Shown here: in pieces, positions 24,846 to 52,482 of the stretch | How positions within the stretch are numbered: the first letter of the stretch is position 1 | Layout: every line of letters starts with the position of its first letter | IMG/VR virus record: IMGVR_UViG_3300013006_000018 | Direction: 5' to 3' (one strand) | DNA: 64,000 bases | From: a virus | Program-made: the position numbers and the translations under genes | Notes under the pieces: generated by a model | The model's input: the letters and a program-made list of their open reading frames with translations, nothing else | What the model was told of the DNA's origin: nothing | The model's database searches: none

Positions 24846-24860
24846 AGAATTATTTATCCT

Positions 24861-33033: not shown

Positions 33034-33060
33034 AATATATATTTTATGAACTTTTTGATA

Positions 33061-33435
33061 CTAATCAATGATCTTATCTAGAGTATCGCTGACGTGCTTG
33101 ACTGTGTCAATTATAGCTTTAAGTTTTCTTATAGCATCCTGCACCTCGAGTTTTGCTTTAGTATTTTCAGATACTAAGGGAAAATTGAGTGAGGTTTCAA
33201 AGAGCTGTAATGCATTAGATGCATCAACATATATTTGGCCTAGCGAATCTGTTACCGTAGTGAGAGGGAACGGAAGGCTTTTTCTTAATTGTACTTGGTT
33301 CGGAAATTGGGACATCGACTTGTTAAATAGGTCCTTTATAGTAACCTGTTGTGCATTAACCTCTCTTGCAGCCATACCTGTAGTCCACTTGTTATAGTAG
33401 CTTACTGTATCTTCAAACATTAACCTTTTCTTCAC
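33061..33435 (-). CDS. late hypothetical (putative head) protein
   Basis: AATAAATA 6 nt upstream; MKKRLMFED. Confidence 0.6.
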   Translation of the reverse strand: MKKRLMFEDTVSYYNKWTTGMAAREVNAQQVTIKDLFNKSMSQFPNQVQLRKSLPFPLTTVTDSLGQIYVDASNALQLFETSLNFPLVSENTKAKLEVQDAIRKLKAIIDTVKHVSDTLDKIID

Positions 33436-33468
33436 TAAATATATTTATTCTAATATAAATAATAATGT

Positions 33469-34918: not shown

Positions 34919-34949
34919 AAGCTATTGTAGTAATATAGGAAGTAAAATT

Positions 34950-35147
34950 CTACTCTTTTTTATCTTGAGTAGCACTAGGTATGTCTCTAACAGAGACAAC
35001 GCCTTTACGGATAAAAGTACCGCTTGCGGGATCAATATATTCGGCTTCAACAACTTCTTTGCGACCACGGATATATGTTTTTAATGTGGGCCTAACAGGT
35101 TCACCGGAGATGGGTGATGTAATTATTACCGGCTTAATGAAGTCCAT
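34950..35147 (-). CDS. small hypothetical protein
   Basis: MDFIKP...SPISG...DPASG; fills gap; start uncertain (35147 or 35162). Confidence 0.5.
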   Translation of the reverse strand: MDFIKPVIITSPISGEPVRPTLKTYIRGRKEVVEAEYIDPASGTFIRKGVVSVRDIPSATQDKKE

Positions 35148-35174
35148 AAAACTATTTATCAACCAAGTTTATAA

Positions 35175-36300: not shown

Positions 36301-36317
36301 AAAATAACTTATTTAAG

Positions 36318-36644: not shown

Positions 36645-36996
36645 TTATATTATTTATCCTCTTGGAGAGAAATCTACAGCGACCGGAGTAGTCTTGATTA
36701 CATGTTACACCATATTTTACAAGGTATTCAATTATAGTTTCAATACTTTCGGTCTTTAAGGTAAAATTACGGGGGAATCTATTGCCGCCGTCATTCAGCT
36801 CAAAGCATGTTGAGTTATTGTCGCCGCCATCATTATAGCAAGTAATAAAGACAGAGACTTCACTAGGATTAACTAGTACGGTCCATCTACGGGGATCGCT
36901 TTTATTAAAAATAGAGAACACTTTCAAGACAACAAACCCGTTGTCTTTAAGACGTTTTATAAAGTACCCCGGTGTACGTATTTTGTTTTTACTCAT
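36610..36996 (-). CDS. hypothetical protein
   Basis: Coupled to gp45 stop (TAATG). Confidence 0.6.
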   Translation of the reverse strand: MSKNKIRTPGYFIKRLKDNGFVVLKVFSIFNKSDPRRWTVLVNPSEVSVFITCYNDGGDNNSTCFELNDGGNRFPRNFTLKTESIETIIEYLVKYGVTCNQDYSGRCRFLSKRINNINEESQPESVEG

Positions 36997-37727
36997 TAGC
37001 TTGTAAGAGCTGAGATGACAATTTTATGTTTCACTGCACTATCATCTAGTTCCAGTAACGCTATACCCATTTTCGAATGGATTTTAATGTTAAATGTTTT
37101 TACCCTCATAGAAGAAATTATTCTAAAAATTTCAAAATTCAACGGTATCCCTGTAGTTATTGCGACACCAACATAGTCATCTGTAAGCTTTAAATCAAAG
37201 GAGTCTATATTCGGTCTACTTTTATCAGTAAGCTCTCCAAATACACTATTATTTTTAAATGTTAAATACATCTTGCTTGAGTCATTATTAATAGAACTCG
37301 CTTTTACCAGGTTAACTAGGACAGACTGTGAAAGTGAAAAGCAACCATCGAACTTAATATCATCCAATTTATTAATATTAAGTTTTGGAGTTGTAATAAT
37401 ACCGTCATCAAACAAATGATATTTAAATCTGATATCGTCAGAGCTGTAGGAAATATTATTACTATTGATTGTAATATCAAATTCTTTACTTGAAATACAG
37501 GAGAACAATCGATGTAATTTTTTAAGGTCCGGTATATTGAGTGTTACTTTACCTTTCATTTTTTCATCAGAAAAGGTAGAAGATACAATTACCGTACTAT
37601 CACTTGTCGATAATAAGGAATTAATACCGCTGTCGGTAATATTAATTACCGCACTTTCAGAAATTTTACTTATAAAGCCGAGAAAGCTATCTAAAAAACA
37701 ATCTCGATCACGAATTGTTACTAACAT
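36996..37727 (-). CDS. gp45: sliding clamp gp45-like
   Basis: ~240 aa, two-domain beta-rich clamp pattern (LNIPDLKKL..L, IRFKYHL.DD.II); replication cluster. Confidence 0.7.
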   Translation of the reverse strand: MLVTIRDRDCFLDSFLGFISKISESAVINITDSGINSLLSTSDSTVIVSSTFSDEKMKGKVTLNIPDLKKLHRLFSCISSKEFDITINSNNISYSSDDIRFKYHLFDDGIITTPKLNINKLDDIKFDGCFSLSQSVLVNLVKASSINNDSSKMYLTFKNNSVFGELTDKSRPNIDSFDLKLTDDYVGVAITTGIPLNFEIFRIISSMRVKTFNIKIHSKMGIALLELDDSAVKHKIVISALTS

Positions 37728-37732
37728 TAAAA

Positions 37733-38122
37733 CTACTTAGATGTTTTAGATAAAATTGTAAGTGTATTTTTAGTATTTTCTTGTATCTTCTCTAAACATA
37801 TTGCTATTCTATCTAGACTCAAAGCAATCTTATTATTCTCTGGAGCAATAGGGATATGAGAAATGGTAGGTACTTGGGCCTGCTGTACAAAGGGCTGCAC
37901 CTGCAGTGCAGGCGCCCCTTGAGGCAAGGGCTGTGCTTGAGTTTGTTGCTTTGGTATTGTTTTTAAGATGCCCTCGGGATTTAAGCTTAACCCCTGCAGC
38001 GTAGGATTCTTACTAACAATATGACCGTCTAGTGCCTTAAGGTCACCGAGATTCTGACCCATAAACTGGAGTGTTACCAGTCTGATCTCTTCTGGTGTAG
38101 GCTCTCTGAAAGTATCGCTCAT
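37733..38122 (-). CDS. hypothetical protein
   Basis: Between gp32 and gp45; Q/P-rich middle. Confidence 0.55.
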   Translation of the reverse strand: MSDTFREPTPEEIRLVTLQFMGQNLGDLKALDGHIVSKNPTLQGLSLNPEGILKTIPKQQTQAQPLPQGAPALQVQPFVQQAQVPTISHIPIAPENNKIALSLDRIAICLEKIQENTKNTLTILSKTSK

Positions 38123-38994
38123 TATTCGTCAAGCTCTTTAAGAAGATTAGTAATAGAATCATCACTTAAATCATCTTCAACTTTTTTAGTAGCTTTTACC
38201 GAGGGTGTTTCTGTATTTACCTGTTTTTTAATAGATTTTACTTCAGCTACGATTTGAGGTACTGTAACTTCTGCTTCCTCAGCTACATCCTCTTTACAAT
38301 AGAAATGCTGATCAAATAGTGATTTTAATTCATCGTAACTCTTAACAGATACATATGACTCTAAATTACAAGCGCCGTTATATTTTTCATCGTATTCATC
38401 TGCATCTAATCCTTCAATTTCTTTAGCAGATTCAAATCTTGAAGAGACATACGTCGGATAATCACCTTGCTTTTCAACCCTAATCTTTAAATTACATCCT
38501 TTAGGAGATAAGTCAAAAATACGAGGACCAAACTCTTCCGCAGCTTCTCCTTCTATAGCATCCATAATAATCTTATGAAGCTGTTTGCCGAATCGGATAA
38601 CTTTTATCTTTCCGTTGTTATCTGGATTGACAGGGTCTTTAACAACATAGGCGTTTACCATCCAATTTTCCCGTCTCATAATCACAGACATTTTCTTCTT
38701 TTCATCTTCGGTACCATTACGAAGAACACGGTACCGCTCTTCTCCGATAGGGTCCCTTTGGCCCCATGTAGTTGGACTTACACACATAACAAGCTGGCCG
38801 GTACTGTAACTATTCCAGCCGTATGAATAATAATGGAAGAAGGTCTTTGTAGGGTCTTTGATATTAGGTAACAGCCTTACCGTATATGTGTTGCCTACTT
38901 CAGTCCTTAAGAAGTCTTTGGTACGGGAGGCGGTTGGTTCTTTAGTTAGGGCAGACTTAATGCTTTCAAACATTGAATTTGTAAATGAGTTCAT
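38122..38994 (-). CDS. gp32: single-stranded DNA-binding protein gp32
   Basis: VRLLP, YVVKDPVNPDNNGKIKVIRFGKQL, FDL..GCN.KI, YVSSRF, acidic tail. Confidence 0.9.
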   Translation of the reverse strand: MNSFTNSMFESIKSALTKEPTASRTKDFLRTEVGNTYTVRLLPNIKDPTKTFFHYYSYGWNSYSTGQLVMCVSPTTWGQRDPIGEERYRVLRNGTEDEKKKMSVIMRRENWMVNAYVVKDPVNPDNNGKIKVIRFGKQLHKIIMDAIEGEAAEEFGPRIFDLSPKGCNLKIRVEKQGDYPTYVSSRFESAKEIEGLDADEYDEKYNGACNLESYVSVKSYDELKSLFDQHFYCKEDVAEEAEVTVPQIVAEVKSIKKQVNTETPSVKATKKVEDDLSDDSITNLLKELDE

Positions 38995-39000
38995 AATTAA

Positions 39001-39028
39001 ATTTTATGATAACGAATCTTGAATTCAA
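39001..39028 (-). promoter_or_regulatory. sigma70-like promoter TTGAAT-N16-TAAAAT for gp32
   Basis: -35 contains TGA stop of upstream gene; 6 nt to ATG. Confidence 0.7.
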
Positions 39029-39687
39029 GCTTTATTTAAAGTATCTTTGATCTTTTTAATGGCATGCGTCCCGAGTAGTTTGGCCTTCTTAGAAAAACTG
39101 TACTTATTTTTAAGAGTTTCGACTCTATTAAAGAAATTATTTCCAAACATAAATTCTAAAATTTCAGCTCCTGAGATTCTCATATTACGAATAGCGTCTT
39201 TAAATTCAAAAAGTGAATAGAGATTTATCTTATGCTCTTGTAGATGTAGCAAAAAAGAGAAGATATTGTTTGTCTTATGGTTTACATAACTATCAATAGT
39301 GATATTGTTTTCGGTACAAAATTCTTTAATAAACTTAAAGGATATTAATAAAGCTCGAAGCTGTTTTAAATCATCCGGGTCGAGCTGCTCAGTTCTCTTT
39401 ACAATAAGGGTGTAGGCTCTGGTAGCTTTAAGACTAATATAATAATCCAGTCCGAAGTATTTTTCGTCTTTATATAGTTCATAGGGAGCTTGAAAAAATT
39501 CTAATATGGAAATATGCTTAAATCTATTAAAGAAGTTGGACAACTTTTTAAGGTGAACGTAATCTTTGTCATTAAAATCAGTAAAGTCTTTGCGCGCTCG
39601 ATAAGGCTGATTCTTGGCACCTCTTGAAACCTTTATAAAGGTATTGTATATGTGTTTTTCGAAATCTGTAAGAGTATTCAATACCAT
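39025..39687 (-). CDS. possible helicase loader (gp59-like)
   Basis: Basic, aromatic 220-aa protein immediately upstream of gp32 as in T4; positional inference only. Confidence 0.45.
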   Translation of the reverse strand: MVLNTLTDFEKHIYNTFIKVSRGAKNQPYRARKDFTDFNDKDYVHLKKLSNFFNRFKHISILEFFQAPYELYKDEKYFGLDYYISLKATRAYTLIVKRTEQLDPDDLKQLRALLISFKFIKEFCTENNITIDSYVNHKTNNIFSFLLHLQEHKINLYSLFEFKDAIRNMRISGAEILEFMFGNNFFNRVETLKNKYSFSKKAKLLGTHAIKKIKDTLNKA

Positions 39688-39969
39688 CTATGATAATGCA
39701 TTTTTATTAGCGTTCAAATATTTCATTATATATTTACTTTTATATAATCCTGTATCAAACTGCAGAAAACTTTTTATCGCTGAGTAGTCGTTTTCAAAGC
39801 CACAGTACTCCTTAAACAGAGTTCTTACACTCGGATTCTGTAATAGTAGTAAGAATATATTTGCTAAGTTCATTTTTTTTGTCTGAAGTAAGCTAATAAG
39901 AGTACAGAATGAATAAAACAAATGATTGAACTCATATGTGGTTATTGAATGGGATGGGTCTGATTTCAT
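39688..39969 (-). CDS. hypothetical protein
   Basis: 93-aa ORF, coupled to neighbours. Confidence 0.55.
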   Translation of the reverse strand: MKSDPSHSITTYEFNHLFYSFCTLISLLQTKKMNLANIFLLLLQNPSVRTLFKEYCGFENDYSAIKSFLQFDTGLYKSKYIMKYLNANKNALS

Positions 39970-40877
39970 AATGCAGCCAGGCTTTTACTAAAGCGAAGAA
40001 ACTCCTCGTTAAGAGGTCCTCCACCAATATTCTTTGTACCTTCGCCTTTAAAGTTTTCCCTAGCAAATCTGCCTATGTGTAAATCATGGTTTTTGTTTTT
40101 ATCTTTTCTTAAGCTTATATATTTTACATTTAAATTGACTACTATAGCGATATCTGCATCAGCTTTAGTTAGAATATAGTGTGCAACTTCACTCGGAGCG
40201 AAATCTGAGGTTGTACTGACTACTTTATAATTCTTGTCTTCAAAGTTAACATTTGTTGTATATATACTAAGTTGATCGAGAATACCGTTTAATTTATTTT
40301 TATATTGCTTAATAAGATTAGTTTGTTGGTTATTAAATCCTTTAAACCCGTCCTTAAAATCATTATAAAATTTTTCTATTCTGTCTCCTGTATAGCTCCA
40401 GAAGAGAAAGTTTAAATCTTTAGAAAAAGGGTGTTTAAGGTTATAGCTGTCATAATCATTAACTAAGGAAATTAGTAATTTTTGTTCTTGTGTTAGAATA
40501 TCGTTATATTTTTCTTTAAGTCTTTTGTATAGCATTAATGCACAGCTTGAACTGTTGTCAGTAATAATTTTTGCATTTTTAAATTTAGCTACATGCTTTG
40601 GATTATCTTCACCGTGGTTAATATATGTTACATTTTTGAGATCTGCAATATCGTCTGTAAAGCCAAGAATAGCTAAATCAAAGATATAGATTTTTTTAAA
40701 GTTTTCAGATTTATTATTATTAAGAAATGACTCAAAATCTTTACGGAAAGATTTCTCTGTAGATGCCCTATAGGGACATATAAGCTTTGTAAACCATCTG
40801 AAAACTGTATAGCAGCATGCACCATCAAGGTCTGCATCTGTGAAGATAAAAATATTGTCGACAGGTTTTTCTGCCAT
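39966..40877 (-). CDS. DHH-family phosphoesterase homolog with degenerate motifs
   Basis: TDADLDG (motif I), IFDL (II), INHG in place of DHH, VNDYD (IV), GEGTKNIGGG in place of GGGH. Confidence 0.75.
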   Translation of the reverse strand: MAEKPVDNIFIFTDADLDGACCYTVFRWFTKLICPYRASTEKSFRKDFESFLNNNKSENFKKIYIFDLAILGFTDDIADLKNVTYINHGEDNPKHVAKFKNAKIITDNSSSCALMLYKRLKEKYNDILTQEQKLLISLVNDYDSYNLKHPFSKDLNFLFWSYTGDRIEKFYNDFKDGFKGFNNQQTNLIKQYKNKLNGILDQLSIYTTNVNFEDKNYKVVSTTSDFAPSEVAHYILTKADADIAIVVNLNVKYISLRKDKNKNHDLHIGRFARENFKGEGTKNIGGGPLNEEFLRFSKSLAAL

Positions 40878-40912
40878 AAATTTATTTAGAGTTTATAACA
40901 AAGAAATCAATT

Positions 40913-42238
40913 CTAATTGTTTGAAAGTGAAGCAAGACTGTTTATAGTTGATGTACTTGCTTCGGTGTCGTTTACATGTTCATCTTCTGAAATTGTAAGA
41001 GTACTATAGTCGACACGCATAATGCAGTGACCGAAATTTGTACCAAACCGATTTTTCATAATTCCGAGCTTTATAACACCGAGCTCTCTGTCTGTATCTT
41101 CTTGCCAAATGCTCATTATAACATCGGCTGTAGCGGCCAACCCCATACTCTCAGAGATGGTATTTAAACCTGGGTCAGAGGTGTTATAGCCTTCACGGTT
41201 TAACTGTGTAGCGCTAATGACAGGGCAATTAAACACATAAGTTAACGCTCTTAACTGTTCAGTACAATATTTGATACGTTCATAGGTGTTACTTCCCAAG
41301 GTAGTATGTAGTAGATTGATATAATCTAAAACAATAGCATCAATCTTGAGACCCTTGCTAGTAAGTTTTTTGATAAAAGCTTTAAGGTGATTTGTTGTAA
41401 TAGTTGAAGGGGGGAATTCTTTAACAAGAATTTTTGCACCAGGCTTTTCAGCAGTATATCCTTCTATCTGATTCTTTAATGTAATACACTCAGGCTTTAG
41501 ATGGTTAAAAGGTATCTTAGTAATATTTGTATAAAGACGTTTTGCATAAACCATTTCCGGCATTTCAAGTGTTATAAGGAGAACGGTCTTATTTTGACTT
41601 GCTATATTAACTGCAACATTACCAAGGAATATGCTTTTACCAATATTAGTTTCACCTGCAAACACATAGATTGAACGGCCTGATTCTAAAAAACCACCAC
41701 CTAATCTTTCATCAAGCCACTTCCATTTACTAGAAATATAATTATCTTCTCTATTCAGATCTTGGATAACTTTTTCAATATCGGGAAATAGATCTAGACC
41801 TGCATCCGTCGTAAGACTAATACTGCATGCTTTATCAAATTTATTTAAAATAGCAGATGTATCAATACTATTCTTCCCGATATCATCCACGGTATCCATC
41901 ATAGTATGATAGACCGCTTTTTCTTTGAGAAAAATTTCCGTATTGTTATAAAGTTCGTCGTTGTTAAATTTTTTATCTAAATCAACGAACTTGTTTACGA
42001 CAACCTTACAAGACGCTTTTAATTCGTCTGTATTGAGATAGCTCTTTATTTCTGTTAATGTCGGTTTTGTACTTCTTTTAGTATAAAAATCTTTAATGAT
42101 ATTATAGATATCTCTATTATTTTTATCTTTAAAAAAGCGCAGCTCGAGAATATCTACAATCGATGCCAGGTACATCTCATCTGAAAGACATTTATAAATT
42201 ATGACTGTCTCAAAGAAATCTAAATCTAGCTTAACCAT
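40913..42238 (-). CDS. gp41: replicative helicase gp41 (DnaB-like)
   Basis: AGETNIGKS, ITLEM, VKEFP, LDYINLL, SATQLNR, SESMGLAATAD, MKNRFG. Confidence 0.95.
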   Translation of the reverse strand: MVKLDLDFFETVIIYKCLSDEMYLASIVDILELRFFKDKNNRDIYNIIKDFYTKRSTKPTLTEIKSYLNTDELKASCKVVVNKFVDLDKKFNNDELYNNTEIFLKEKAVYHTMMDTVDDIGKNSIDTSAILNKFDKACSISLTTDAGLDLFPDIEKVIQDLNREDNYISSKWKWLDERLGGGFLESGRSIYVFAGETNIGKSIFLGNVAVNIASQNKTVLLITLEMPEMVYAKRLYTNITKIPFNHLKPECITLKNQIEGYTAEKPGAKILVKEFPPSTITTNHLKAFIKKLTSKGLKIDAIVLDYINLLHTTLGSNTYERIKYCTEQLRALTYVFNCPVISATQLNREGYNTSDPGLNTISESMGLAATADVIMSIWQEDTDRELGVIKLGIMKNRFGTNFGHCIMRVDYSTLTISEDEHVNDTEASTSTINSLASLSNN

Positions 42239-42244
42239 CTAAAG

Positions 42245-42272
42245 ATTTTATCTATGACAAGCAAATATTCAA
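42245..42272 (-). promoter_or_regulatory. sigma70-like promoter TTGAAT-N16-TAAAAT for gp41
   Basis: -35 overlaps upstream TGA stop; 6 nt to ATG. Confidence 0.7.
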
Positions 42273-42934
42273 GAATACTCTTGAATAAACTTTTCCTGAC
42301 TGCTGAGAAACACCGAGCTATTAGGATCAAGTAGCCCGGGTGACTTATGAATAACCCAGATTGGAGTAACCCCGAGCTTTAATTTCTTTTTGTTTGCATC
42401 AATACTGCTAGCAATATCATAGTGATGAAAAGTATAGTTTTCGTTAAATTTCCAGTCTACTTCCTTTACCCTTTTAGTATTAACGCTAATAAAAAGACCA
42501 TCTAGCAACGTAACTCTTGATGGTGTCGGACCGAAGCTTGTCATAAGAATTGTTTTCTCTTGGAGTGGGTGGGCAACTGCTCCTCTAAGGTTAGTACTAT
42601 TAAAACCGCCGCACATTATATGCCATAGCGCAGGTTCAATAATTCTGGGGTTAGTACCGCCGGCTAACCCAACTATGTCGTATTCCATATGAGCTGTATG
42701 TAGCTTTTCACAAACATTAAGATCATCAACATATACATCGTCATGAATAAAGGTTATATAATCATAGGTGTCGCTATGTTTTTGCAGTATAAGATTGTAA
42801 TTAGTGCTTAACCCTATTTTATTGTTTGAATTATAAGCTATGTCTATATCTTTAATTTTAGATAGAGATTTACATGCTTGTGTATCTTTAGGGTCAATAT
42901 TTCTTGTACAGAAATAAAATAGGATCTTTTTCAC
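42269..42934 (-). CDS. GT-A fold glycosyltransferase (GT2-like)
   Basis: GLSTNYN, FIHDDVY (DxD-like), DIVGLAG, LDGLFI, FHHYD. Confidence 0.75.
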   Translation of the reverse strand: MKKILFYFCTRNIDPKDTQACKSLSKIKDIDIAYNSNNKIGLSTNYNLILQKHSDTYDYITFIHDDVYVDDLNVCEKLHTAHMEYDIVGLAGGTNPRIIEPALWHIMCGGFNSTNLRGAVAHPLQEKTILMTSFGPTPSRVTLLDGLFISVNTKRVKEVDWKFNENYTFHHYDIASSIDANKKKLKLGVTPIWVIHKSPGLLDPNSSVFLSSQEKFIQEYS

Positions 42935-43620
42935 TTCGTAAAGAAGGGTGAGCTCGCTTTAAATTCACACACCTCAGTTATACCTTCAGGCGTTAAGAGA
43001 TAAAGAATACCTTCGTCTATAGGTTTGAAGCCCTTCTCAGTTAATGATGAGAAGCTATTATTGAGAAAATCTGCATAAAGGGTACAGCCTGAGCGAGCGA
43101 TATAAATATTTTGGTTCTTAGAATTATATATCCATAAACCAAAATTACCTTCAAGAACACTCAATACAGAGCAAATAATTTGAGCTTCCGTTTTCTTAGG
43201 GAACTTTTTCTTTTGTAAATGTAGTAGTACTGGAATTACTGACGAATCTACTTCATTGAATAACTTTTTGTCTCTAATTGGTTTCTTTAATTCCAGGTGG
43301 TTAGTTAGCACACCATTGTGAGCTACAACCCAATTTTCTATATTAAAAGGATGCGATGTCTTGATGTTGTATTTTCTTGCAGATGACGTGGGTGCCTGTG
43401 TATGGCCAAGAAAGTAGTCAAAATCATAGATTTTTTTATTGGCTTTGCCGTATTTTATAACTAAATTCCGAGTTAGGTTAATTTTACCCGGTGAGCGTAA
43501 TGTTGCGTATATAGATTTTGTCACTAAAATACCACCAAACGCGTAAGTTCCTCGTTTTTTGTTCATATTATACAGCTGCGTGTACAGTTTATAATCTTTT
43601 GCTCCAAATATACCGCACAT
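42931..43620 (-). CDS. class II (Ntn) glutamine amidotransferase, stand-alone (start revised to 43620)
   Basis: MCGIFG N-terminal Cys, RG, GHTQAPT, SHPF, AHNGVLTN, VDS; promoter TTGAAA-N16-TAATAT at 43629-56. Confidence 0.85.
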   Translation of the reverse strand: MCGIFGAKDYKLYTQLYNMNKKRGTYAFGGILVTKSIYATLRSPGKINLTRNLVIKYGKANKKIYDFDYFLGHTQAPTSSARKYNIKTSHPFNIENWVVAHNGVLTNHLELKKPIRDKKLFNEVDSSVIPVLLHLQKKKFPKKTEAQIICSVLSVLEGNFGLWIYNSKNQNIYIARSGCTLYADFLNNSFSSLTEKGFKPIDEGILYLLTPEGITEVCEFKASSPFFTK

Positions 43621-43657
43621 ATAAGAATATATTAATAGAAAGAATAAATATTTCAAG

Positions 43658-44515
43658 ATGAATAAGGATGTACACTTAATATATGAAGCGTATACAGATA
43701 GATTTCTAGTCGAAGCACCTCCTGTTGAGATGTCTGGTGATGTAAATGTCGAGCCAGTCACGAGCAAGACTATACCTGGACAAGGAAAGAAGTACGGCGG
43801 AGGCGCCATTACTGCTGTAGCCCAACAACAAGGGAAAAGTGAAGAAGATGTCACCCAGGATATGGCTAAAACAATAATTGCAAAAGCACAAGATAAAAAA
43901 GAAATTGACGGGAAGATGGTGCATTATTTTTCAGGCGAACCTGATGCATTTATTGAGAGCCTCGTTCCTGAGTTTGAACAGAAGTACGGTATCAAGCCTA
44001 CAATGGCCAGATACACTATAAATTATCTTCTAATATATGTGTTGAATGCAAAGAAAACACCCGGTGGTCTGATTAAGCTGAGCACTAAGAATATATCGAA
44101 CCCGGAAGCATTACCTGACCAGCCTACGGTAACAGATATGAAATTCCCTTCAGTAGATGAAGGGTATGGGCCAGAGTTTAATTATATTAAGAATAAAGAA
44201 GCAAAGCTAGAGGGTAAAATAGGAGAAGTTTTTAATTTAATGCCTGAAGAGGTTAGCGGCGATGACATGTCGTCGGCTATCAAGAGAAACATGATACAAG
44301 TTGGTATTGATAAAAGACAATTCTGGAGTGTTATCACCGGGTTAATAGAAAATCGTGCGTTTTTTGAAAAGAAGAAAGATGAGACTTCTGATCCTGAGAG
44401 CGATGTTTCTGTAGAGCCTTTATCAGTTTCAAAGAGAGATACAGAAGATGCTGTTAGAGAGCTCCCTGCATATAGAGAAATGCAAAGACAAAAAGCAAGA
44501 GAAACTAGTTACTAA
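43658..44515 (+). CDS. late hypothetical (putative head) protein
   Basis: AATAAATA 7 nt upstream; MNKDVHLIYEAY..FLVEA. Confidence 0.65.
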   Translation: MNKDVHLIYEAYTDRFLVEAPPVEMSGDVNVEPVTSKTIPGQGKKYGGGAITAVAQQQGKSEEDVTQDMAKTIIAKAQDKKEIDGKMVHYFSGEPDAFIESLVPEFEQKYGIKPTMARYTINYLLIYVLNAKKTPGGLIKLSTKNISNPEALPDQPTVTDMKFPSVDEGYGPEFNYIKNKEAKLEGKIGEVFNLMPEEVSGDDMSSAIKRNMIQVGIDKRQFWSVITGLIENRAFFEKKKDETSDPESDVSVEPLSVSKRDTEDAVRELPAYREMQRQKARETSY

Positions 44516-45257
44516 TTAAGTAACACCCATTATCTTTCCAGGGTATACTAATTTTATAAGGTAGGGGGTCTATTAATTTAGCTTCCAAAAAGCCTTTTAT
44601 TCTTAATGAACAGGCTGTACACTCACCGCATGATATCTCACCGCCCTCATAACATGTCCATGTTGACCTGAAATCAACCCCGAGTTTAATACCCTTTTTA
44701 ATAATATCTTTTTTAGATAATTCTATTAACGGTGCTTCAATAATAATTTTATTTCTTCTATTGAGAGCAGAGACATTATTAATTTGTTCTAAAAATTCAG
44801 GACTACCATCCCAAAAACCTGCAACGCTATCGGCTTGTGCAGCTCCATGAAAAACTGTGCTAGCCCCGTAGTTTTCTGCTATTGCAAGTGATATACTTAA
44901 GAGCATTAAGTTTCTGTATGGGACATAGTTCACCGTCTGCGGATCACCCATTACATCTTTAGCCTTAGCAACTGCAACCTTGTTATTAAGAAGGGAAGAA
45001 ACCTGACATATATCTTTAAAAAACGGTAATTTTACATGCAGACTATCAACCGGTATATCAACCGATTCAATCTGAAATGACGCGCAGTTTATTTCTTTAT
45101 CACGATGCTTCTGACCGTAATCATAGTTAACCGTAATTACTTTATCATACTTACTTGCAGCTAAATGTAGTAGTACGGAACTATCCATACCACCTGAAAC
45201 AGGTACTACAACTTTAGTCTTTTGCTTCTTCTTCTTCGGGAGGCGCTTCATTTGCAT
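44505..45257 (-). CDS. queC: 7-cyano-7-deazaguanine synthase QueC
   Basis: SGGMDS, YGQKH, YVPYRN, TWTCYEG..CGECTAC. Confidence 0.92.
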   Translation of the reverse strand: MQMKRLPKKKKQKTKVVVPVSGGMDSSVLLHLAASKYDKVITVNYDYGQKHRDKEINCASFQIESVDIPVDSLHVKLPFFKDICQVSSLLNNKVAVAKAKDVMGDPQTVNYVPYRNLMLLSISLAIAENYGASTVFHGAAQADSVAGFWDGSPEFLEQINNVSALNRRNKIIIEAPLIELSKKDIIKKGIKLGVDFRSTWTCYEGGEISCGECTACSLRIKGFLEAKLIDPLPYKISIPWKDNGCYLISN

Positions 45258-46329
45258 TATACTTATATTCTAGTGCTAGGCGCTTATCAAGTTCAGGTAT
45301 AATAAACTCTTCATAAAATGCAGGCTCTCTAGCAAAGTTTTTTGCATAACCGAGTTTTTCACCTGTTTTATACTTACCGCAGTCAATACCTACTGTAAAT
45401 GTTGGGCCGTTCTGTACAACAATATTCCTTGCAGCTGCCATAGCTAGAAGACCACTATATTTGTTTAGACCATATTTGAATGAGAGGTACATTTCGGCTT
45501 CAAGGAAGGGCGGTAAGAATCTATTTTTTACAGTTAACACTCTCAATGTTGTTCCGGTATATTTGTTGGCTTCTGCGAGCTTAACATCAGCTAAGAAGTT
45601 ATCGCCTTCGCCTTCTTTTTCGTTTCTTCTTGCAAGCTGTACTAAGATACTAGACATATATATAGGACCTGAACCTCCTGCCTGGCTTTTAACCAAAGTA
45701 GGGTACATAGAGCCCGGATCCTCGTAAGTATGGTTAGTAAAGAGGATAGTAACACCTGCTTTTGCTGCTTTAAATGTTAAAACTCTAAACATACTTTTAA
45801 GAGATTTTGCTCGTAAACCCATATCTGTTGCAGATTTATCTTTTATAACGTCATCGAGCTCTTTCTGTGAGGCCAAATTACCCAAACTATCAATACTAAT
45901 AATAAATTTTCCTTTAGCATCGTTTTCAATAACGCTATCTAGGAAAGTTGAAATTTGATTACGGCACTGATCAATGGTATCAACAGGGACATATTTTGTC
46001 TTTTCAGGATCCAAACCGACGCCCTTGGTGCTGTTTTCATCAATAGCGATCTCAGTATCAAAGATGACTGGAAATATGCCTACTTTTTGAGCGCTAGCAA
46101 GAATCTTGTTTACTATAAAAGTTTTACCGGTTTGACTAGGACCTGAGAAGCCTACTATCCGGCCTTTAGGTACCCCGCCGGTACGACAGCTTCCACCCAG
46201 AATTGCATTCAGTGCAAAGCATCCTGTATCAAACCATGTATCGACTTTACTTAAAGCGTTTTCATTTAAGAATGACGCTTCACTATTTAAATTATCTAGA
46301 GATGCGAAAATTTTATTAAGATCTTTCAT
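45214..46329 (-). CDS. uvsX: RecA-like recombinase UvsX
   Basis: DTG..ALNAILGG, GPSQTGKT, FDTE, IDSLGNL, DMG.RAK, TNHTY, KNRF; start 46329 fits promoter 46336-63. Confidence 0.93.
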   Translation of the reverse strand: MKDLNKIFASLDNLNSEASFLNENALSKVDTWFDTGCFALNAILGGSCRTGGVPKGRIVGFSGPSQTGKTFIVNKILASAQKVGIFPVIFDTEIAIDENSTKGVGLDPEKTKYVPVDTIDQCRNQISTFLDSVIENDAKGKFIISIDSLGNLASQKELDDVIKDKSATDMGLRAKSLKSMFRVLTFKAAKAGVTILFTNHTYEDPGSMYPTLVKSQAGGSGPIYMSSILVQLARRNEKEGEGDNFLADVKLAEANKYTGTTLRVLTVKNRFLPPFLEAEMYLSFKYGLNKYSGLLAMAAARNIVVQNGPTFTVGIDCGKYKTGEKLGYAKNFAREPAFYEEFIIPELDKRLALEYKYNANEAPPEEEEAKD

Positions 46330-46363
46330 TATCATATTTTATATTATTCCTTTTAAGAATCAA

Positions 46364-46402
46364 TAAAATACCCTACATATTTTAGGTATGTAGGGTATTT
46401 TA
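46364..46402. terminator. 16-bp-stem hairpin, probable bidirectional terminator
   Basis: TAAAATACCCTACATA-7nt-TATGTAGGGTATTTTA perfect inverted repeat. Confidence 0.8.
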
Positions 46403-46422
46403 GCAAAGTATGTTATGGTTTA

Positions 46423-46797
46423 TTATTCGTCAAATAACTTGATAACACGTTCGTCTTTTTGTTCCTGCTTGGGTTCGCTCGCGGGTGTATTAGAGAAGAG
46501 ACGTTCATATTGAGTAATAAGCCGTTCATCATTCTCAACCGAAACACCGAGCACAACATTCGAATAGAAAAACTTCCAAACAGTACCTGCTTCACGAGAT
46601 TTTTCGCCTAAAAATTCTCTAAAAAACATTGGAATTGTTTGTACGTTAAGCTGACCTGTTTGGGTCGGTTGTACGTGAATGATTGCGGGGTTTTTAACAA
46701 GGAAAGCGACACCTTTATCAGTATCACCCTCATTGCCACCGATAATTGTTCTACCGATGTGATCGACGAATGTTACAATACTATTTGTTTTGCTCAT
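46423..46797 (-). CDS. hypothetical protein (possibly Sm-like fold)
   Basis: GRTIIG...LVKNPAII pattern; own promoter at 46804-31. Confidence 0.55.
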   Translation of the reverse strand: MSKTNSIVTFVDHIGRTIIGGNEGDTDKGVAFLVKNPAIIHVQPTQTGQLNVQTIPMFFREFLGEKSREAGTVWKFFYSNVVLGVSVENDERLITQYERLFSNTPASEPKQEQKDERVIKLFDE

Positions 46798-46827
46798 ATA
46801 CTTATATTATGAAAATACATTTTAAAA

Positions 46828-49419
46828 TCAACTACCATCTTTTAATAGATCGAATAGATCAGTCTGAACCTGATTACCGGGCGTCTTTAGCTTCCAATTT
46901 ACCGCTTGATAGAAACGATCAATAATGCTATATACAATTTTTGTAAACATAAGTTCATGGTCCGGTTTAAAGCTATCTTTAAACTCCTTGGGGTAATAAT
47001 ATTTGTAACCTAGCACAGAAATACCAAATTTATTAGGCTGTTGGGTGTAAAAAAACTTAACCTTATCTCCGGAGGATAACTTTTCGTATGTCTTATCTAT
47101 ATTAAATCTTTCTAGTAGTTTGTTATGGTAGTATGCCGCTTTGACATGGATGGGCATATGCTTAGCGGTTTTAAAGCCGTCACATTCTGGTGCATACTTT
47201 TCATATCCCTTTATACCCATTGTAAATGCTATATCTTCAACAGGTAGTTGTTTGAATATATCATATGTTTCGTTGAAGATTTTATTGGTTTCTTGCAGGT
47301 TTTTAGTCAAAAGCATAGTCTCGATAATTTTCTTTACCTTCGGCTTGATGGGCGTTGGCATAGTAGTACGTACTACCTCAACACCTGTATACTTAAACTT
47401 GTCACAAGGTATACCTTCTTCATCTAAAATGTGTATTACATACCTCTTTTTTTGTAGAAAGAGACCAACGTCTGCTATCGCTTCCCTTTTAAAATTTAGC
47501 CGGCAATCAATAGATCTTAACGATTCCGCGCCCCACTTCTTAATTTCTACATTCAAGTAATCTTCTATCTCTTGCACGATTTTATAATATTCCGATGTTA
47601 TCTTACCCTTTGAATCACATAACTTGATTCCAAGCTTCTCAACTAAAGGCTTAATAGAAATATAAGAACTATCCGTATCATTGTATATGATCGGTGTATT
47701 GGTGCTAAGCTCTTCATCTGTCATATTAGTCTTACTTTTTATAAACTCTGTTAATAATTTGTTTGACTGCTTTATAACAGATTGACCGGTAAGAGTAATC
47801 GATTCAGCGAGTTGATCATCCCCGAGAGGGCTATGCTTATTACCAAAATATCCGTAGATGGTATTAATTAAGATTTTTATTGTATGCTGTTTAACGTTAG
47901 TGTTTTCAATCTGATGCTGTATATCTTTGTACTCGGGTGTACCTTTTTCAATAGTTAAAATCTTTCTTTTTAATGTCTTTAAAACTTTTTTAAGCACGAC
48001 CCGTTTTTCATAATAGTAATCTACCGTAATAGGGATAATACCCTTTTCTTTCTGAGAGAACATAACTTTTGCTTTAGAAATAGCTATTTGTTCCTTCTCA
48101 ATAAAATTAACAAAGTTTTCATGTGAAAGCTTAAAGGTCTGACCGTTGACATGTTCAATTGTTATTTCCTTATCTGTCTTTTCTGTGATAACACCGACCT
48201 TTGTTTCGGGTGATAGATTTAAAGTGATCATTACGTTTGGATATAGACTGTTCGCGTCAAAAGAGATTATATGCTCTTGAAATCCAGATTTTGGTTCACT
48301 TACATAAGCACCTTCATTCTTACCGTCCTCTTTTACATCCTTATTAAACGTCGGTATTCTTTGATTGCGCTGTCGTGCTTTTATAGCACATAACCCTGTA
48401 ATAACGGATAGAGACCCTAGAGCACCTTCAAATGTTGTTAATCCTGCGTACGCTATCATACGTAATAAAGAAAGATATTGGAGCTTACTTTCTAATCTTA
48501 CCAATAGATTTACGTCTTGTACGTTGTATTCGACAAATAAATCCCAATTAGTGTCAGCTAGATTGGAAAGGTTTGTACCACCAAAATCAATCTTACTTTC
48601 ACCCAGTTCGGTGTTGCCAATATTATCCAGCTTATATGATTCACGTAGAACAGGGCAAAAGCGTTTATATATATCCAGGTAATCAACGCAAGAGACACCC
48701 TCTATATGCCACCTTGTTTGCTCTCTACCGAACTTACCAAGGAATGTGCGTGGTCGTATTGTATTGATTGGTGACAACCGTCTCGCTTCATTTTCTCCCA
48801 ATATCTTTACAATACGATTTACAATATAAGGTATATCAAAGAATTCACTATTCCATCCAGAAAGAATATCTGGGTAGTCAGCTTCTAAGAAACATAGAAA
48901 TTTTGTAAATAATTCCTTCTCCGTCTTACAATAGATATAAGTTGAGTTATCTTTTATCTTATTGTACGGCTTAATCCCCCATGTATAGAAATGTTTACGA
49001 ATAGAATCATATATTGTTATAATATTAACGGTATGTAATGGGTTTTCAGGAATGGGAAATTCATCTGGACTGTACGTTTCGATATCAATAAAATAAACTT
49101 TCAACTCATGCTTATTAAAGTCATCTGTTTCGTTTGTCTGCCAGAAAGAATCTATTAAAAATTGCTGCTGGGCATTAAAGTTTTCAAATAAGCGCTCTAT
49201 TTTATTGTCTTTTAGATATCTATATCTATCAGCTTGAGTACGGAATGATTTTTTCTTAAGCTTGGTATTAAATATGCTTGTACAGTCGGCTTGGTTGTTG
49301 GTTTCAAGAAAAATATACGGATTGAAAGTTGCATCATACTGTATTCTTTTACCGTTTTCATCCCACGTAAACAGGCGCATAACCTGCTGACTGGGTATAT
49401 ATGCACAATTCCTATACAC
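46828..49419 (-). CDS. gp43: family B DNA polymerase gp43
   Basis: DIET, GWNSEFFDIPY, YNVQDV exonuclease motifs; FDANSLYP, KILINTIYG, YNDTDS, KKRY. Confidence 0.97.
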   Translation of the reverse strand: MYRNCAYIPSQQVMRLFTWDENGKRIQYDATFNPYIFLETNNQADCTSIFNTKLKKKSFRTQADRYRYLKDNKIERLFENFNAQQQFLIDSFWQTNETDDFNKHELKVYFIDIETYSPDEFPIPENPLHTVNIITIYDSIRKHFYTWGIKPYNKIKDNSTYIYCKTEKELFTKFLCFLEADYPDILSGWNSEFFDIPYIVNRIVKILGENEARRLSPINTIRPRTFLGKFGREQTRWHIEGVSCVDYLDIYKRFCPVLRESYKLDNIGNTELGESKIDFGGTNLSNLADTNWDLFVEYNVQDVNLLVRLESKLQYLSLLRMIAYAGLTTFEGALGSLSVITGLCAIKARQRNQRIPTFNKDVKEDGKNEGAYVSEPKSGFQEHIISFDANSLYPNVMITLNLSPETKVGVITEKTDKEITIEHVNGQTFKLSHENFVNFIEKEQIAISKAKVMFSQKEKGIIPITVDYYYEKRVVLKKVLKTLKRKILTIEKGTPEYKDIQHQIENTNVKQHTIKILINTIYGYFGNKHSPLGDDQLAESITLTGQSVIKQSNKLLTEFIKSKTNMTDEELSTNTPIIYNDTDSSYISIKPLVEKLGIKLCDSKGKITSEYYKIVQEIEDYLNVEIKKWGAESLRSIDCRLNFKREAIADVGLFLQKKRYVIHILDEEGIPCDKFKYTGVEVVRTTMPTPIKPKVKKIIETMLLTKNLQETNKIFNETYDIFKQLPVEDIAFTMGIKGYEKYAPECDGFKTAKHMPIHVKAAYYHNKLLERFNIDKTYEKLSSGDKVKFFYTQQPNKFGISVLGYKYYYPKEFKDSFKPDHELMFTKIVYSIIDRFYQAVNWKLKTPGNQVQTDLFDLLKDGS

Positions 49420-49425
49420 TAAAAA

Positions 49426-49453
49426 ATTTTACGATACTAAAATACGAAATCAA
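49426..49453 (-). promoter_or_regulatory. sigma70-like promoter TTGATT-N16-TAAAAT for gp43
   Basis: -35 overlaps upstream TGA stop; 6 nt to GTG. Confidence 0.7.
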
Positions 49454-50661
49454 GAGATACCGTTAATTGCGTTCAGTAAGCGTCTCTCGGGGTGACCATA
49501 CGGCAGCGTATAGAGTTCAAGGTATTTGTTAATATTATCGTCATTTTCAAGCCAGCGCTCACCTGCAGTCTTGCGCGCACGAGCGCAAGTATTCATATAT
49601 TTACCCTTTTTCTCTAATGTACTATCAATAGCTTTGATCATTTCGTCACCTGTCTTAAATTTAATTGGCGCGTCAGCATACGTACATAAATCTTGACAAG
49701 CAATAGGTAGCCCAAAGCAAGATGATTCAATATATTTCAAATCACTCTTTGCTTTATTGAAGGTATTATCTTGAAGAGGTGCTACAAGCATATTAACGCG
49801 CAGGTTAAAGATTTTCTCAGGATATTGATACAGAGCTGACCAAGGATGAAACTCGAACTGTTTGGCTTGTACTAATGGATGAAATCTCATTGGGTACCCA
49901 CCAAGAAACACCCACTGATACTTGTGCATAGTACCCATAATTGCATCTATAACGTGCTCAAAATCATCCCGCTGGCCGACGCGGTTATCAACATCGAAGT
50001 GTGCTCCTGAGCCAGCGTACAAGATGCGAGGGCGCTCTTTATAGAGGTCGTAATTCTCTGATATACGCTTCTCATCATAATGATTACCCATCCACCATTT
50101 AGGTGGATAGTTAGGTATTTTGGTAACATTTTTATTATTAGTTTTTGACTTGTAATAGTCTTTCATGAAGTCACATGTTACTGTAATTTCATCGCATAGT
50201 TCCATAATTTGCTGAGATGTATTACGGATTTCGTCAGTTGTAAATGCTGGCTTAAACTTATTATATTCTGGTATATCTTCACGGAAAACCAGATCGTCTA
50301 TTTCATATATGATTTTAAATCCTATTTGCTTTTGGACTTCTTTTAAGAATTGAACGAATTTTAGTTGGGCCGGCGTTGCTTGACGCTGTATTCTTACCGT
50401 CTTGACACCAATAAAGTAACGAGGATCAAAACACATGACAGTACTACCATGCACCGTCATTTTTTGGTGCGCATTAAGCAGATGCTCTGGCCAAATTAAA
50501 CGCCAAAAACCGCACCCGCTATAATCTGCATAATAATTTAATGCGCGCGGAAGGTTAACTTCAGGTGGGACGGGCGTTGTTGACTGTGGTTGATGGATTT
50601 GTGGGTGAGCTGCGGCAAAAGGAGATGCGAAGGGTGATGAAAAGGGAGAGGGTGAAAACAT
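49450..50661 (-). CDS. GT-B fold glycosyltransferase
   Basis: GCGFWR..WP, IQRQ, YEIDD, IPNY, APLQDNTFNKAKSDLKYIE. Confidence 0.8.
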   Translation of the reverse strand: MFSPSPFSSPFASPFAAAHPQIHQPQSTTPVPPEVNLPRALNYYADYSGCGFWRLIWPEHLLNAHQKMTVHGSTVMCFDPRYFIGVKTVRIQRQATPAQLKFVQFLKEVQKQIGFKIIYEIDDLVFREDIPEYNKFKPAFTTDEIRNTSQQIMELCDEITVTCDFMKDYYKSKTNNKNVTKIPNYPPKWWMGNHYDEKRISENYDLYKERPRILYAGSGAHFDVDNRVGQRDDFEHVIDAIMGTMHKYQWVFLGGYPMRFHPLVQAKQFEFHPWSALYQYPEKIFNLRVNMLVAPLQDNTFNKAKSDLKYIESSCFGLPIACQDLCTYADAPIKFKTGDEMIKAIDSTLEKKGKYMNTCARARKTAGERWLENDDNINKYLELYTLPYGHPERRLLNAINGIS

Positions 50662-50676
50662 ATGAAGTAATTAATG

Positions 50677-52482
50677 TTAAGCAGGCAGATAATCAACCCG
50701 ACGTGTTATACTATTACGCTTCTCAAGAAATATGACATCACCCGATGCAGACTTAACACTTTCTTTTCTGTGACTAATAATCATTATAGCTTCATTATAC
50801 TCTTGTACTCTCTCATTGAGAATATTGATTACAAGATCGACGCCTTTTTCGTCTAAGCTCGAATCAAACAGTTCATCATATATACTGAAATTATAGGTCA
50901 CATCGCCCTGTAGTCTACGGATATCCATAAAGGCAAATAGACAAGATAGATCAATATTCTTACGCTCAGCTCCGCTAAAATTAAAATACGAACATGTCTT
51001 TCCTTTATCATTAATAATCTCTTCTTCAAAATACTCATTAAAAGTACAGTGACAATTAGCATCCATTTTTTTGAGATAGTATATAAGTTTTGAGTTGAAT
51101 AATTGCAGAATTTTTTTAACAATATAAGCTTTGACACCCTCTTCGGATACTACAAATTTAGCAGTTTCCTGGAGTTTAATTTTTTTCTTAAATTCATCAA
51201 TATTCTTATTAATAATAGTGAGTTTTATATTTTGTTCTTCAATTAAGCTATCAAAATTTTTGGCAGTTGTTTTTAAATCTTTTAAATCTTGTTCTAACTC
51301 TATCTGCCATGCTTCAAGCTGCTTTTTTCTGTTTAACGTATTTTCGTGGTCTCTTTTCTCTAGATGCGATTCATTAATCTTTTGAACCAACACACTTATC
51401 TTATCTTCGATTTTATGTTCTAAAGCTTCAAGCTTATTAATATCATCTTCATTTTGAGTAATATCTTTGTTATATTCTTCAATTGTACTACCGATTTTTT
51501 CTTTCTCGGTTTTAATATGTTCCGCGTCCATGTCTTTTATGTCTCTAAGGCATACCGTACACTTACCTTTTAAGGTATCAATAGTAGCATACTGCTTATT
51601 GAGTTGCTTTATAAGCGTTTGTTTTTCCGAGATGTTATGACGTATTTTTATTAGCTTATTGTCTATCTTCTTAATATTTTCTTTTTGTTCCTTGATTGAA
51701 GCTTCGGTCTCAGAAACATTATGCTCTTTAAACGGTTTAATTTTTTTCTCAATAATAGATAATTCTTCAGCATTATTCTTTTTTCTTGTTTCGTACTTTA
51801 TCCTGCGCGTAGTAAGGTCCTGTTCTGAAGTGGTTTTTTGCTTTTCAAGACTTTCAACTGTACGTTCTATTTCCTCATATCTTGTTGTTTCAATATCATA
51901 TTCACGTTTTGTCTCGCTTATATCTTCTTTAAGCTTTAGAAGCATATCACTAAAGACACTTAAATTAAAAATATCTTCAATAAATTTTCTTTTATCTTGC
52001 TTCTTTTTAGCCATGAATGGTATTGTATTATTAATAGTCATTATGACACAGTTTTGGAAGACATCTTCAGTACAGCATAATAACTGTGAGATATATTCGT
52101 TAGTATTTGTTATACTGTCTCGTGTAATATCTTTACCGTTAAGCTTTAGATAACAGCGTGATGGCTCTATACTTCTTGTGATTTGAATAACATCTGTATT
52201 ACCAGCGTTTTGAATATCTATATCTAGGGTAACAACACAATTGCTTTTATTAATGTTATTAACAATAAGTTCCTTCTTTAAATCTCTTAAAGTGTTACCG
52301 AATACACCGAAATAGATAGCATCGGCAATGGTCGACTTACCAACCCCGTTTCGGCGATCTTCTTTATCCCGATTAACACCGGTAATTACATGCAATCCTG
52401 GTTTAAATTCAACCATGACGGGTTCTTCGCCGACTGAAAGAAAGTTCTTTATTGTAACTTTTTTAAATAAAATAGTCTTCAT
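50677..52482 (-). CDS. gp46: recombination endonuclease ATPase subunit gp46 (Rad50/SbcC-like)
   Basis: KNFLSVG, NGVGKST, CTVC hook, FSGAE, YDELFDSSLD, IISH. Confidence 0.95.
   Translation of the reverse strand: MKTILFKKVTIKNFLSVGEEPVMVEFKPGLHVITGVNRDKEDRRNGVGKSTIADAIYFGVFGNTLRDLKKELIVNNINKSNCVVTLDIDIQNAGNTDVIQITRSIEPSRCYLKLNGKDITRDSITNTNEYISQLLCCTEDVFQNCVIMTINNTIPFMAKKKQDKRKFIEDIFNLSVFSDMLLKLKEDISETKREYDIETTRYEEIERTVESLEKQKTTSEQDLTTRRIKYETRKKNNAEELSIIEKKIKPFKEHNVSETEASIKEQKENIKKIDNKLIKIRHNISEKQTLIKQLNKQYATIDTLKGKCTVCLRDIKDMDAEHIKTEKEKIGSTIEEYNKDITQNEDDINKLEALEHKIEDKISVLVQKINESHLEKRDHENTLNRKKQLEAWQIELEQDLKDLKTTAKNFDSLIEEQNIKLTIINKNIDEFKKKIKLQETAKFVVSEEGVKAYIVKKILQLFNSKLIYYLKKMDANCHCTFNEYFEEEIINDKGKTCSYFNFSGAERKNIDLSCLFAFMDIRRLQGDVTYNFSIYDELFDSSLDEKGVDLVINILNERVQEYNEAIMIISHRKESVKSASGDVIFLEKRNSITRRVDYLPA

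Follow-up and report, generated by a model that had tools for sequence, protein, structure and literature searches.

Why should four gene junctions within one viral replication region be of exactly the same length, and why should the stop codon of each upstream gene lie inside a hexamer that resembles a promoter element? The question is raised by a stretch of 64,000 nucleotides (nt) from the IMG/VR virus record IMGVR_UViG_3300013006_000018, which is called the window throughout. A preliminary description of this DNA had pointed to four minus-strand junctions with an identical 30-nt gap, in which the TGA stop and the T before it open a -35 hexamer that is followed by a 16-nt spacer, a -10 box, 6 nt and the next start codon. 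All four are indeed present, at 39025/38994, 42269/42238, 46828/46797 and 49450/49419, and all parse as TTGAnn-N16-TA(A/T)(A/T)AT-N6-ATG/GTG. The upstream genes end in GCT TGA, TCT TGA, AGT TGA and TCT TGA, respectively, and 30 nt later the next gene begins, with ATG in the first three cases and with GTG in the fourth. Within each gap, the first 2 nt finish the hexamer TTGA(A/T)T, 16 nt of spacer come next, and TAAAAT or TAATAT is separated from the start by 6 nt; beyond the two boxes the spacers have nothing in common, and they differ between relatives. The best explanation, and one that we hold to be probable, is that these junctions are the passive result of a layout found throughout a clade of phages, in which promoters lie flush against start codons and messages are apparently leaderless. 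This clade-wide and apparently leaderless design, which extends to two classes of promoter, is a more interesting fact than the overlap of stop codon and -35 box.

The window is a member of a large uncultured clade of T4-like phages. Relatives of its DNA polymerase are encoded on 553 stretches in IMG/VR, from which 76 distinct loci with identities of 53-94% were kept. Open reading frames (ORFs) were called as the longest ORF, greedily by length, and same-strand junctions were tabulated in two sets: the 76 loci and the window (985,450 bases, 710 junctions), and, since the 76 loci all surround one gene, four long relatives of 129-199 kb (61-91% complete) and the window (854 ORFs, 644 same-strand junctions). 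If stop codons are reused as -35 boxes, TGA is expected to peak at a gap of about 30 nt, and the tabulation of stop-codon type against gap over the window and its relatives bears this out. In the set of long relatives, a gap of exactly 30 nt follows ten TGA stops and not a single TAA or TAG. At gaps of 29-31 nt there are 16 TGA, 7 TAA and 2 TAG stops (n = 25), as against 30, 295 and 54 at all other gaps of at least 0 nt (n = 379), giving a Fisher odds ratio for TGA of 20.7 (p = 5.7e-11). A T precedes the stop codon in 32 of 46 TGA junctions with a gap of at least 0 nt, compared to 108 of 358 for TAA and TAG (p = 3e-7). Overlaps obey a similar regularity in this set, with TGA in all 97 of those of 4 nt and TAA in 33 of the 34 of 1 nt. 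Among the 76 loci and the window, TGA clusters at a gap of -4 nt (106 junctions) and at gaps of 29, 30 and 31 nt (17, 39 and 4 junctions), where TAA occurs 3, 1 and 1 times and TAG never. All 66 TGA stops at gaps of 27-33 nt, representing 55 unique sequences, are part of a TTGA. In the set of long relatives, there are few TGA stops that do not serve a second purpose, as ATGA and TTGA account for 101 and 54 of 188 TGA-ending ORFs, respectively. As had been remarked earlier, many other genes of the window end in TAA: its 73 ORFs of at least 50 codons have 48 TAA, 8 TAG and 17 TGA stops, the latter consisting of ten 4-nt start/stop overlaps, the four TTGA junctions with 30-nt gaps, and three others, two of which belong to doubtful small ORFs.

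What is it, then, that lies at a fixed distance from the start codons? In the window and the four long relatives, 853 called starts could be aligned, and these show a peak of TTGA at 30 and 31 nt upstream (45 and 34 genes) as well as a peak of TA[TA]AAT at 6 nt. The complete two-box pattern is matched at 86 starts, with spacers of 15, 16, 17 and 18 nt in 5, 58, 20 and 3 cases, and distances of 5, 6, 7 and 8 nt between the -10 and the start in 9, 52, 13 and 12 cases. Its -35, TTGA(A/T)(A/T), resembles TTGACA (A in 37 and T in 42 matches at position 5; A in 27 and T in 45 at position 6), and its -10, TA(T/A)(A/T)AT, located mostly 16 or 17 nt past the -35, resembles TATAAT. By -35, -10 and spacing alike, this is a promoter sequence of the sigma-70 type. 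A second class consists of genes in which TAAATA ends 5, 6 or 7 nt before the start (99, 53 and 22 genes). It has the features of a T4-type late promoter, namely a TATAAATA-like box without a -35, and a gp55-type sigma factor is encoded in the window. The two classes are found with different genes: SSB, helicase, polymerase, UvsX and UvsY carry the sigma-70-type promoter, and tail tube, tail sheath and baseplate genes the late box, which lies 5-7 nt before 13 ORFs of the window. Many of the other genes (213 of the 853) are tightly coupled to the preceding one, with gaps of -8 to +4 nt. The promoter-to-start pattern is seen in all four long relatives.

As an internal control we used in-frame ATG and GTG codons inside genes (n = 674). 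The late box precedes 174 of the 853 starts and only 4 of these controls, and the full sigma-70 pattern 86 starts and again 4 controls. Shine-Dalgarno sequences, on the other hand, are not enriched (39/853 starts versus 31/674 controls). The reverse test gives the same picture for the late box: out of 359 occurrences of ATAAATA on both strands, 133 (37%) are followed after 5-7 nt by an ORF of 50 codons or more, compared to 2.5-3.6% for five composition-matched heptamers. Moreover, with these 359 occurrences against 590-879 for the five heptamers, ATAAATA is depleted in the window and the four long relatives, which suggests avoidance of stray late promoters. When T4 and pelagiphage Mosig were put through the same pipeline, both showed strong Shine-Dalgarno peaks, and neither a TAAATA peak at 5-7 nt nor a TTGA peak at 30 nt; in each of them, five junctions had gaps of 29-31 nt, and only two of these ended in TGA. 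The exact pattern has 38 matches in 752 kb of five relatives (reversed control, 1), versus 5 in 501 kb of other phages (2 in T4, 2 in Mosig and 1 in S-SM2).

Where would transcription begin at such promoters? A -10 hexamer occupies positions -12 to -7, and after 6 further nt the start codon would begin exactly at +1. The T4 late box has been placed at -13 to -6 (PMC1524935), and with 5 nt in between, +1 would likewise fall on the initial A or G of ATG or GTG. Start-codon usage is in line with this. None of the 260 promoter-flush starts is a TTG and 51 are GTG, as opposed to 9 GTG in the 213 coupled genes (p = 2.7e-7), and this absence of TTG together with the abundance of GTG fits a purine at +1. 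At the 44 unique junctions upstream of the polymerase, its start codon is GTG in 20, ATG in 23 and TTG in one.

In the layout that we propose, most genes would be either coupled tightly to the preceding gene or served by a promoter of their own that is flush against the start codon. Replication and early genes would have a host sigma-70-type promoter, TTGA(A/T)(A/T)-N16(17)-TAnAAT-N6(7)-ATG/GTG, and structural genes a T4-type late box, (N)ATAAATA-N5(6)-ATG/GTG, of which the phage-encoded gp55-like protein is the likely reader. The motifs, their spacing, enrichment and conservation, and the turnover of the stop state are demonstrated; from them we infer that the motifs are active promoters on which transcription starts at the start codon itself. 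With its first base at the expected +1, messages would have no leader and could do without a Shine-Dalgarno sequence. TTGA would then be held at 30 ± 1 nt before the start, and any upstream reading frame entering the -35 in the right frame would have to stop at its TGA. Frames that miss the TGA would run on and stop inside the spacer, and others would stop a few bases before the box. As such, T-TGA junctions with 30-nt gaps would arise because the promoter-to-start distance is fixed, TTGA is invariant and packing is very tight, and the overlap of stop and -35 is most readily understood as a passive consequence of that packing, one of several equivalent junction states. The preliminary description had counted the four junctions as independent support for leaderless messages. 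Their rigid promoter-to-start geometry does fit a leaderless model.

Could the shared TGA nevertheless be a selected design? According to this reading, which was that of the preliminary description, selection for the shortest junction has fixed a TGA common to stop codon and -35, 30 nt is the minimum for a junction that contains a promoter, and the promoter dictates the choice of stop codon. We consider this unlikely. In its favour, among 62 two-box promoters with an upstream gene on the same strand, a stop within TTGA is the commonest single state (15/62), no other offset occurring more than five times; each of the four sets of orthologous junctions shows it more often than any other state, and TGA is otherwise rare (30 of the 379 junctions at other gaps of at least 0 nt). 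However, of these same promoters 16 have the stop 3-10 nt before the box, 10 have it farther away, and no fewer than 21 have it inside the promoter, so a gap of 30 nt is not the minimum. The window itself contains promoter-bearing junctions of 27 and 15 nt (Table 1), and in relatives TTG-TAA hexamers, whose second half is the stop codon itself, give gaps of 28-29 nt, while TAG directly abutting TTGAC is also seen. The late box has a twin of the embedded stop: in 22 of 116 late-box junctions of the four long relatives the stop is the TAA of TAAATA, leaving gaps of just 8-9 nt, and stops of this kind inside the late box produce a TAA spike at a gap of 8 nt (19 junctions). A TAG variant with a 31-nt gap, which had been listed at 34950/34918, does exist, although its hexamer reads TAGAAT rather than TTGAnn, which makes it a weaker case.

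The three reading frames in which upstream genes enter the promoter are, moreover, used without bias (20/15/16 times, chi-square p = 0.66). Of 36 ORFs that reach the TTGA, 15 stop there, where one third would be expected by chance (p = 0.29). The orthologous junctions speak to the same point. A promoter of the form TTG[ACT]nn-N15-18-TAnnnT-N5-8-start is kept in 34 of 44 unique polymerase-upstream junctions with diverged spacers, and it is this promoter-to-start spacing that is conserved, as the preliminary description would have it, but not the position of the stop. The embedded TGA is found in 4 of 12 unique orthologous junctions for SSB, 7 of 20 for the helicase, 13 of 36 for the gene that follows the polymerase and 13 of 46 for the polymerase itself. 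On a FastTree phylogeny of 62 polymerases, 51 of them with a scorable stop state and 17 of these embedded, the embedded state at the polymerase junction changes at least 8 times, whereas shuffled labels require 14.1 changes on average and never fewer than 9. The embedded state is heritable over short distances and turns over often, having been gained or lost at least eight times at a single junction while the promoter stayed in place.

A different possibility is that the boxes are not promoters at all but signals on a long polycistronic RNA, where an A/U-rich stretch of fixed length would serve ribosomes that re-initiate or work independently of a Shine-Dalgarno sequence, and TTGA would be a favoured stop context. 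The absence of Shine-Dalgarno motifs and the frequency of tight coupling (gaps of -8 to +4 nt in 213/853 genes) would suit such a mechanism. Even so, we rate it as improbable. Against it speak a sigma-70 spacing of 16-17 nt and the conservation of TTGA and TAnnnT while the spacer between them drifts, as well as a second class that equals the T4 late-promoter consensus, on structural genes, in a phage that encodes a gp55-like sigma factor. Of 85 two-box TTGA promoters, 23 have an upstream neighbour on the other strand, where TTGA cannot be a stop context, and the depletion of ATAAATA elsewhere is what would be expected if stray promoters were harmful.

Less probable still, and in our view very improbable, is that mobile promoter cassettes, similar to the PeSL cassettes of T4-type phages, have their boundaries at the junctions, the 30 nt being inherited as part of a repeated cassette and not set by function. 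In one long relative, junctions that read 'TAA GCTTGAA...' and have a gap of 37 nt do recur, and in the window a stem-loop (46364-46402) directly precedes the -35 of UvsX. The four junctions, in contrast, separate core replication genes whose order is conserved, and their spacers, which share only the two boxes, vary from one relative to another. Moreover, PeSLs as described (PMC4122927) carry a stem-loop and a Shine-Dalgarno sequence, whereas a stem-loop would not fit into 30 nt, and no Shine-Dalgarno sequence is present there. Chance or an artefact of ORF calling, finally, to which the abundance of consensus-like hexamers in DNA of 35% GC and the crude ORF caller might lend some colour, is refuted by the TGA excess at 29-31 nt gaps (p = 5.7e-11), the 66 out of 66 TTGA contexts, and negative controls with internal ATG codons, the reversed motif and other phages.

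We must however take into account several points that weigh against the promoter-flush, leaderless layout as well. As many as 263 of the 853 starts fall in no class, although these are longest-ORF calls of which many are probably miscalled. The junctions of the 76 loci are orthologous and not independent, with about ten junction families carrying the signal, and the frame test, which rests on 51 junctions, may be too small to reveal a modest selection in favour of the embedded stop. A generic sigma-70 scan of positions 33000-52000 did not rise above shuffled sequence (85 sites versus 74.7 ± 9.2). Because such a scan is close to the shuffled background, any single site is weak evidence by itself, and it follows that the signal lies in a fixed position relative to start codons and not in motif counts. 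Lastly, messages with a leader of 1-2 nt would look the same here as messages with none.

Table 1. Coordinates of putative promoter elements, junctions and genes in the window, all on the minus strand
Feature	Coordinates	Strand	Remarks
-35-like TTGAAT	39023..39028	(-)	holds TGA 39025-39027 of the 220-amino-acid gene 39025-39687; same layout in close relatives L002 and L003
-10-like TAAAAT	39001..39006	(-)	16 nt past the -35, 6 nt before the SSB ATG
-35-like TTGAAT	42267..42272	(-)	holds TGA 42269-42271 of the 221-amino-acid gene 42269-42934
-10-like TAAAAT	42245..42250	(-)	6 nt before the helicase ATG; generic scan lists 42272..42245, TTGAAT-16-TAAAAT
-35-like TTGATT	46826..46831	(-)	holds TGA 46828-46830 of the DNA polymerase gene
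-10-like TAATAT	46804..46809	(-)	6 nt before the ATG of the 124-amino-acid gene 46423-46797
-35-like TTGATT	49448..49453	(-)	holds TGA 49450-49452 of the glycosyltransferase-like gene
-10-like TAAAAT	49426..49431	(-)	6 nt before the polymerase GTG; generic scan lists 49453..49426, TTGATT-16-TAAAAT
TAG variant promoter	34924..34952	(-)	TAG 34950-34952 opens TAGAAT; 17-nt spacer, TACAAT 34924-34929, 5 nt, primase GTG
65-codon gene upstream of TAG variant	34950-35147	(-)	ATG 35147; late box GATAAATA at 35153-35160, 5 nt before the start
Junction with 27-nt gap, -35	33041..33068	(-)	TTGATT 33063-33068 in the last codons of gene 33061-33435, its final T being the T of the TAG stop
Same junction, remainder	33041..33068	(-)	TAAAAT 33041-33046, 7 nt to GTG 33033
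Junction with 15-nt gap, -35	50669..50696	(-)	TTGATT 50691-50696 inside the gp46/SbcC-like gene, TAA stop in the promoter spacer
Same junction, remainder	50669..50696	(-)	-10-like TTAATT 50669-50674, 7 nt to ATG 50661
Late box GATAAATA (example)	24851..24858	(-)	5 nt before the tail-tube ATG
UvsX promoter TTGATT-N16-TAAAAT	46336..46363	(-)	first ATG 46335 abuts the -10; second ATG 46329 fits the geometry of the clade
Tail-tube gene	24300-24845	(-)	ATG start, late box upstream
Primase gene	33878-34918	(-)	GTG start
gp32-like SSB gene	38122-38994	(-)	ATG start
gp41-like DnaB helicase gene	40913-42238	(-)	ATG start
DNA polymerase gene	46828-49419	(-)	GTG start
Glycosyltransferase-like gene	49450-50661	(-)	ATG at 50661; ends at the polymerase junction
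gp46/SbcC-like gene	50677-52482	(-)	TAA stop 50677-50679
gp55-like late sigma factor gene	53540-54139	(-)	phrog_234 'late sigma transcription factor', E 5.8e-25

Some genes of the window deserve separate mention with respect to their starts. The likelier start of UvsX is the ATG at 46329, two codons into the called ORF and 6 nt past the -10. Directly upstream of its -35, a 16-pair stem-loop (46364-46402, minus strand) is located in the 87-nt gap after gene 46423-46797, and together with the promoter it makes up a module of terminator and promoter that resembles a PeSL, which sets it apart from the four 30-nt junctions. A 307-amino-acid ORF with a GTG start (42931-43854, minus strand) is over-extended by 78 codons; it encodes an Ntn-type amidotransferase that most likely starts at ATG 43620 (M-C-G-I-F-G...), preceded on the same strand by TTGAAA (43651-43656), a 16-nt spacer, TAATAT (43629-43634) and 8 nt. 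Only 37 nt from this start begins a plus-strand ORF of 285 amino acids (43658-44515), which the greedy ORF calling had discarded; between the late box AATAAATA and its ATG there are 7 nt. The -35 of the amidotransferase overlaps the start codon of this ORF, and two divergent promoters would be accommodated within 37 bp. A plus-strand ORF of 72 amino acids at 34981-35199, finally, is probably an antisense shadow of the 65-codon gene upstream of the primase.

From ORF translations and PHROG matches, with 61 window proteins scanned, the region is a T4-type replication and structural module. Besides the genes of Table 1, it includes UvsX, UvsY, SbcC/SbcD-like gp46/47, tail sheath, baseplate, terminase and clamp-loader genes. 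Among the 61 proteins no match to a PHROG named gp33 or sliding clamp was obtained, no search having been aimed at either. Parts of a deazaguanine pathway are present as QueC-like, GTP cyclohydrolase and QueD-like genes (44505-45257, 59059-59844 and 61138-61785). The GC content is about 35%, and neither a tRNA gene nor an Rfam family was detected when the window was scanned for them. To known phages the distance is large: the polymerase is only about 29-31% identical to those of the best-listed known phages, all 2668 matching records fall below 60%, and a megablast of 16 kb of the window against 50,697 phage records returned no match. A search for the host by scanning genome contigs with the polymerase yielded only two distant matches, of 28-29% identity, in metagenome-assembled genomes of unrelated groups, which is not informative as to the host. 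Five relatives, only one of them at least 90% complete, gave no match to either the WhiB or the PsbA family, and because they yielded no WhiB-like gene, an actinobacterial host is not indicated. Recoding of TGA was considered and rejected, since long conserved genes are intact when TGA is read as a stop.

The practical consequence of the promoter-flush layout is a rule, promoter box, 5-7 nt, ATG or GTG, by which exact start codons could be assigned in hundreds of uncultured phage genomes. Gene callers that rely on Shine-Dalgarno sequences will misplace starts in this clade, as exemplified in the window by the 78 surplus codons of the amidotransferase ORF and the two of UvsX. TGA in these phages marks overlapping signals, ATGA or TTGA, and not a changed genetic code, and the overlap of stop and -35 is a tidy by-product instead of a mechanism. 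If 5' ends were confirmed, this would be a T4-type lineage that expresses early and late genes alike as leaderless messages, and that would constrain the host and the ribosome type of abundant phages without an assigned host. It is tempting to go further, and to speculate that the whole lineage may have dropped Shine-Dalgarno-led translation, with both promoter classes firing on start codons and, in the boldest form, the phage retuning host ribosomes toward leaderless messages; this is a long shot, and we put it forward as such. If true, every message would be leaderless or coupled, promoters would have nearly sole control of expression, and stops buried in promoter boxes, TGA in TTGA and TAA in TAAATA, would be routine punctuation. 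In the boldest form, host translation would be shut off by the retuning of its ribosomes.

How does this compare with systems that have been described? A search of open-access papers and bioRxiv preprints brought up no account of a T4-type phage with leaderless messages. In the leaderless genes of Actinobacteria and Deinococcus-Thermus, a -10 box lies only a few bases before the start. The clade shares with these a -10 some 6 nt before ATG or GTG, the lack of a Shine-Dalgarno sequence and the acceptance of GTG as start codon; it differs in being a phage clade, in having a strong -35 as well, and in possessing a second, phage-specific class of promoter. With T4 late promoters (TATAAATA at -13 to -6, used by gp55 together with gp33 and the gp45 clamp), the clade has in common the same box, its association with structural genes, and a gp55-like sigma factor. 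The difference is one of distance, as the box of the clade mostly ends 5-6 nt before the start (99 and 53 of 174 genes), which would leave no leader, while in T4, analysed with the same pipeline, TAAATA is mostly found 12-29 nt upstream and a Shine-Dalgarno peak at 5-8 nt. The PeSL cassettes of T4-type phages resemble the clade in placing sigma-70-like early promoters directly between genes, and are described as having a stem-loop upstream of the early promoter and a Shine-Dalgarno sequence at the end (PMC4122927). At the four junctions, by comparison, the -35 overlaps the stop codon and a terminator scan lists no stem-loop, and the mere 6 nt between -10 and start are in no case Shine-Dalgarno-like. 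A parallel to the embedded stops is offered by the ATGA and TAATG overlaps of translational coupling, in which the type of stop codon is likewise fixed by an overlapping signal. There, however, that signal is the next start codon, whereas in this clade it is a transcription signal on the DNA, the -35 or the late box.

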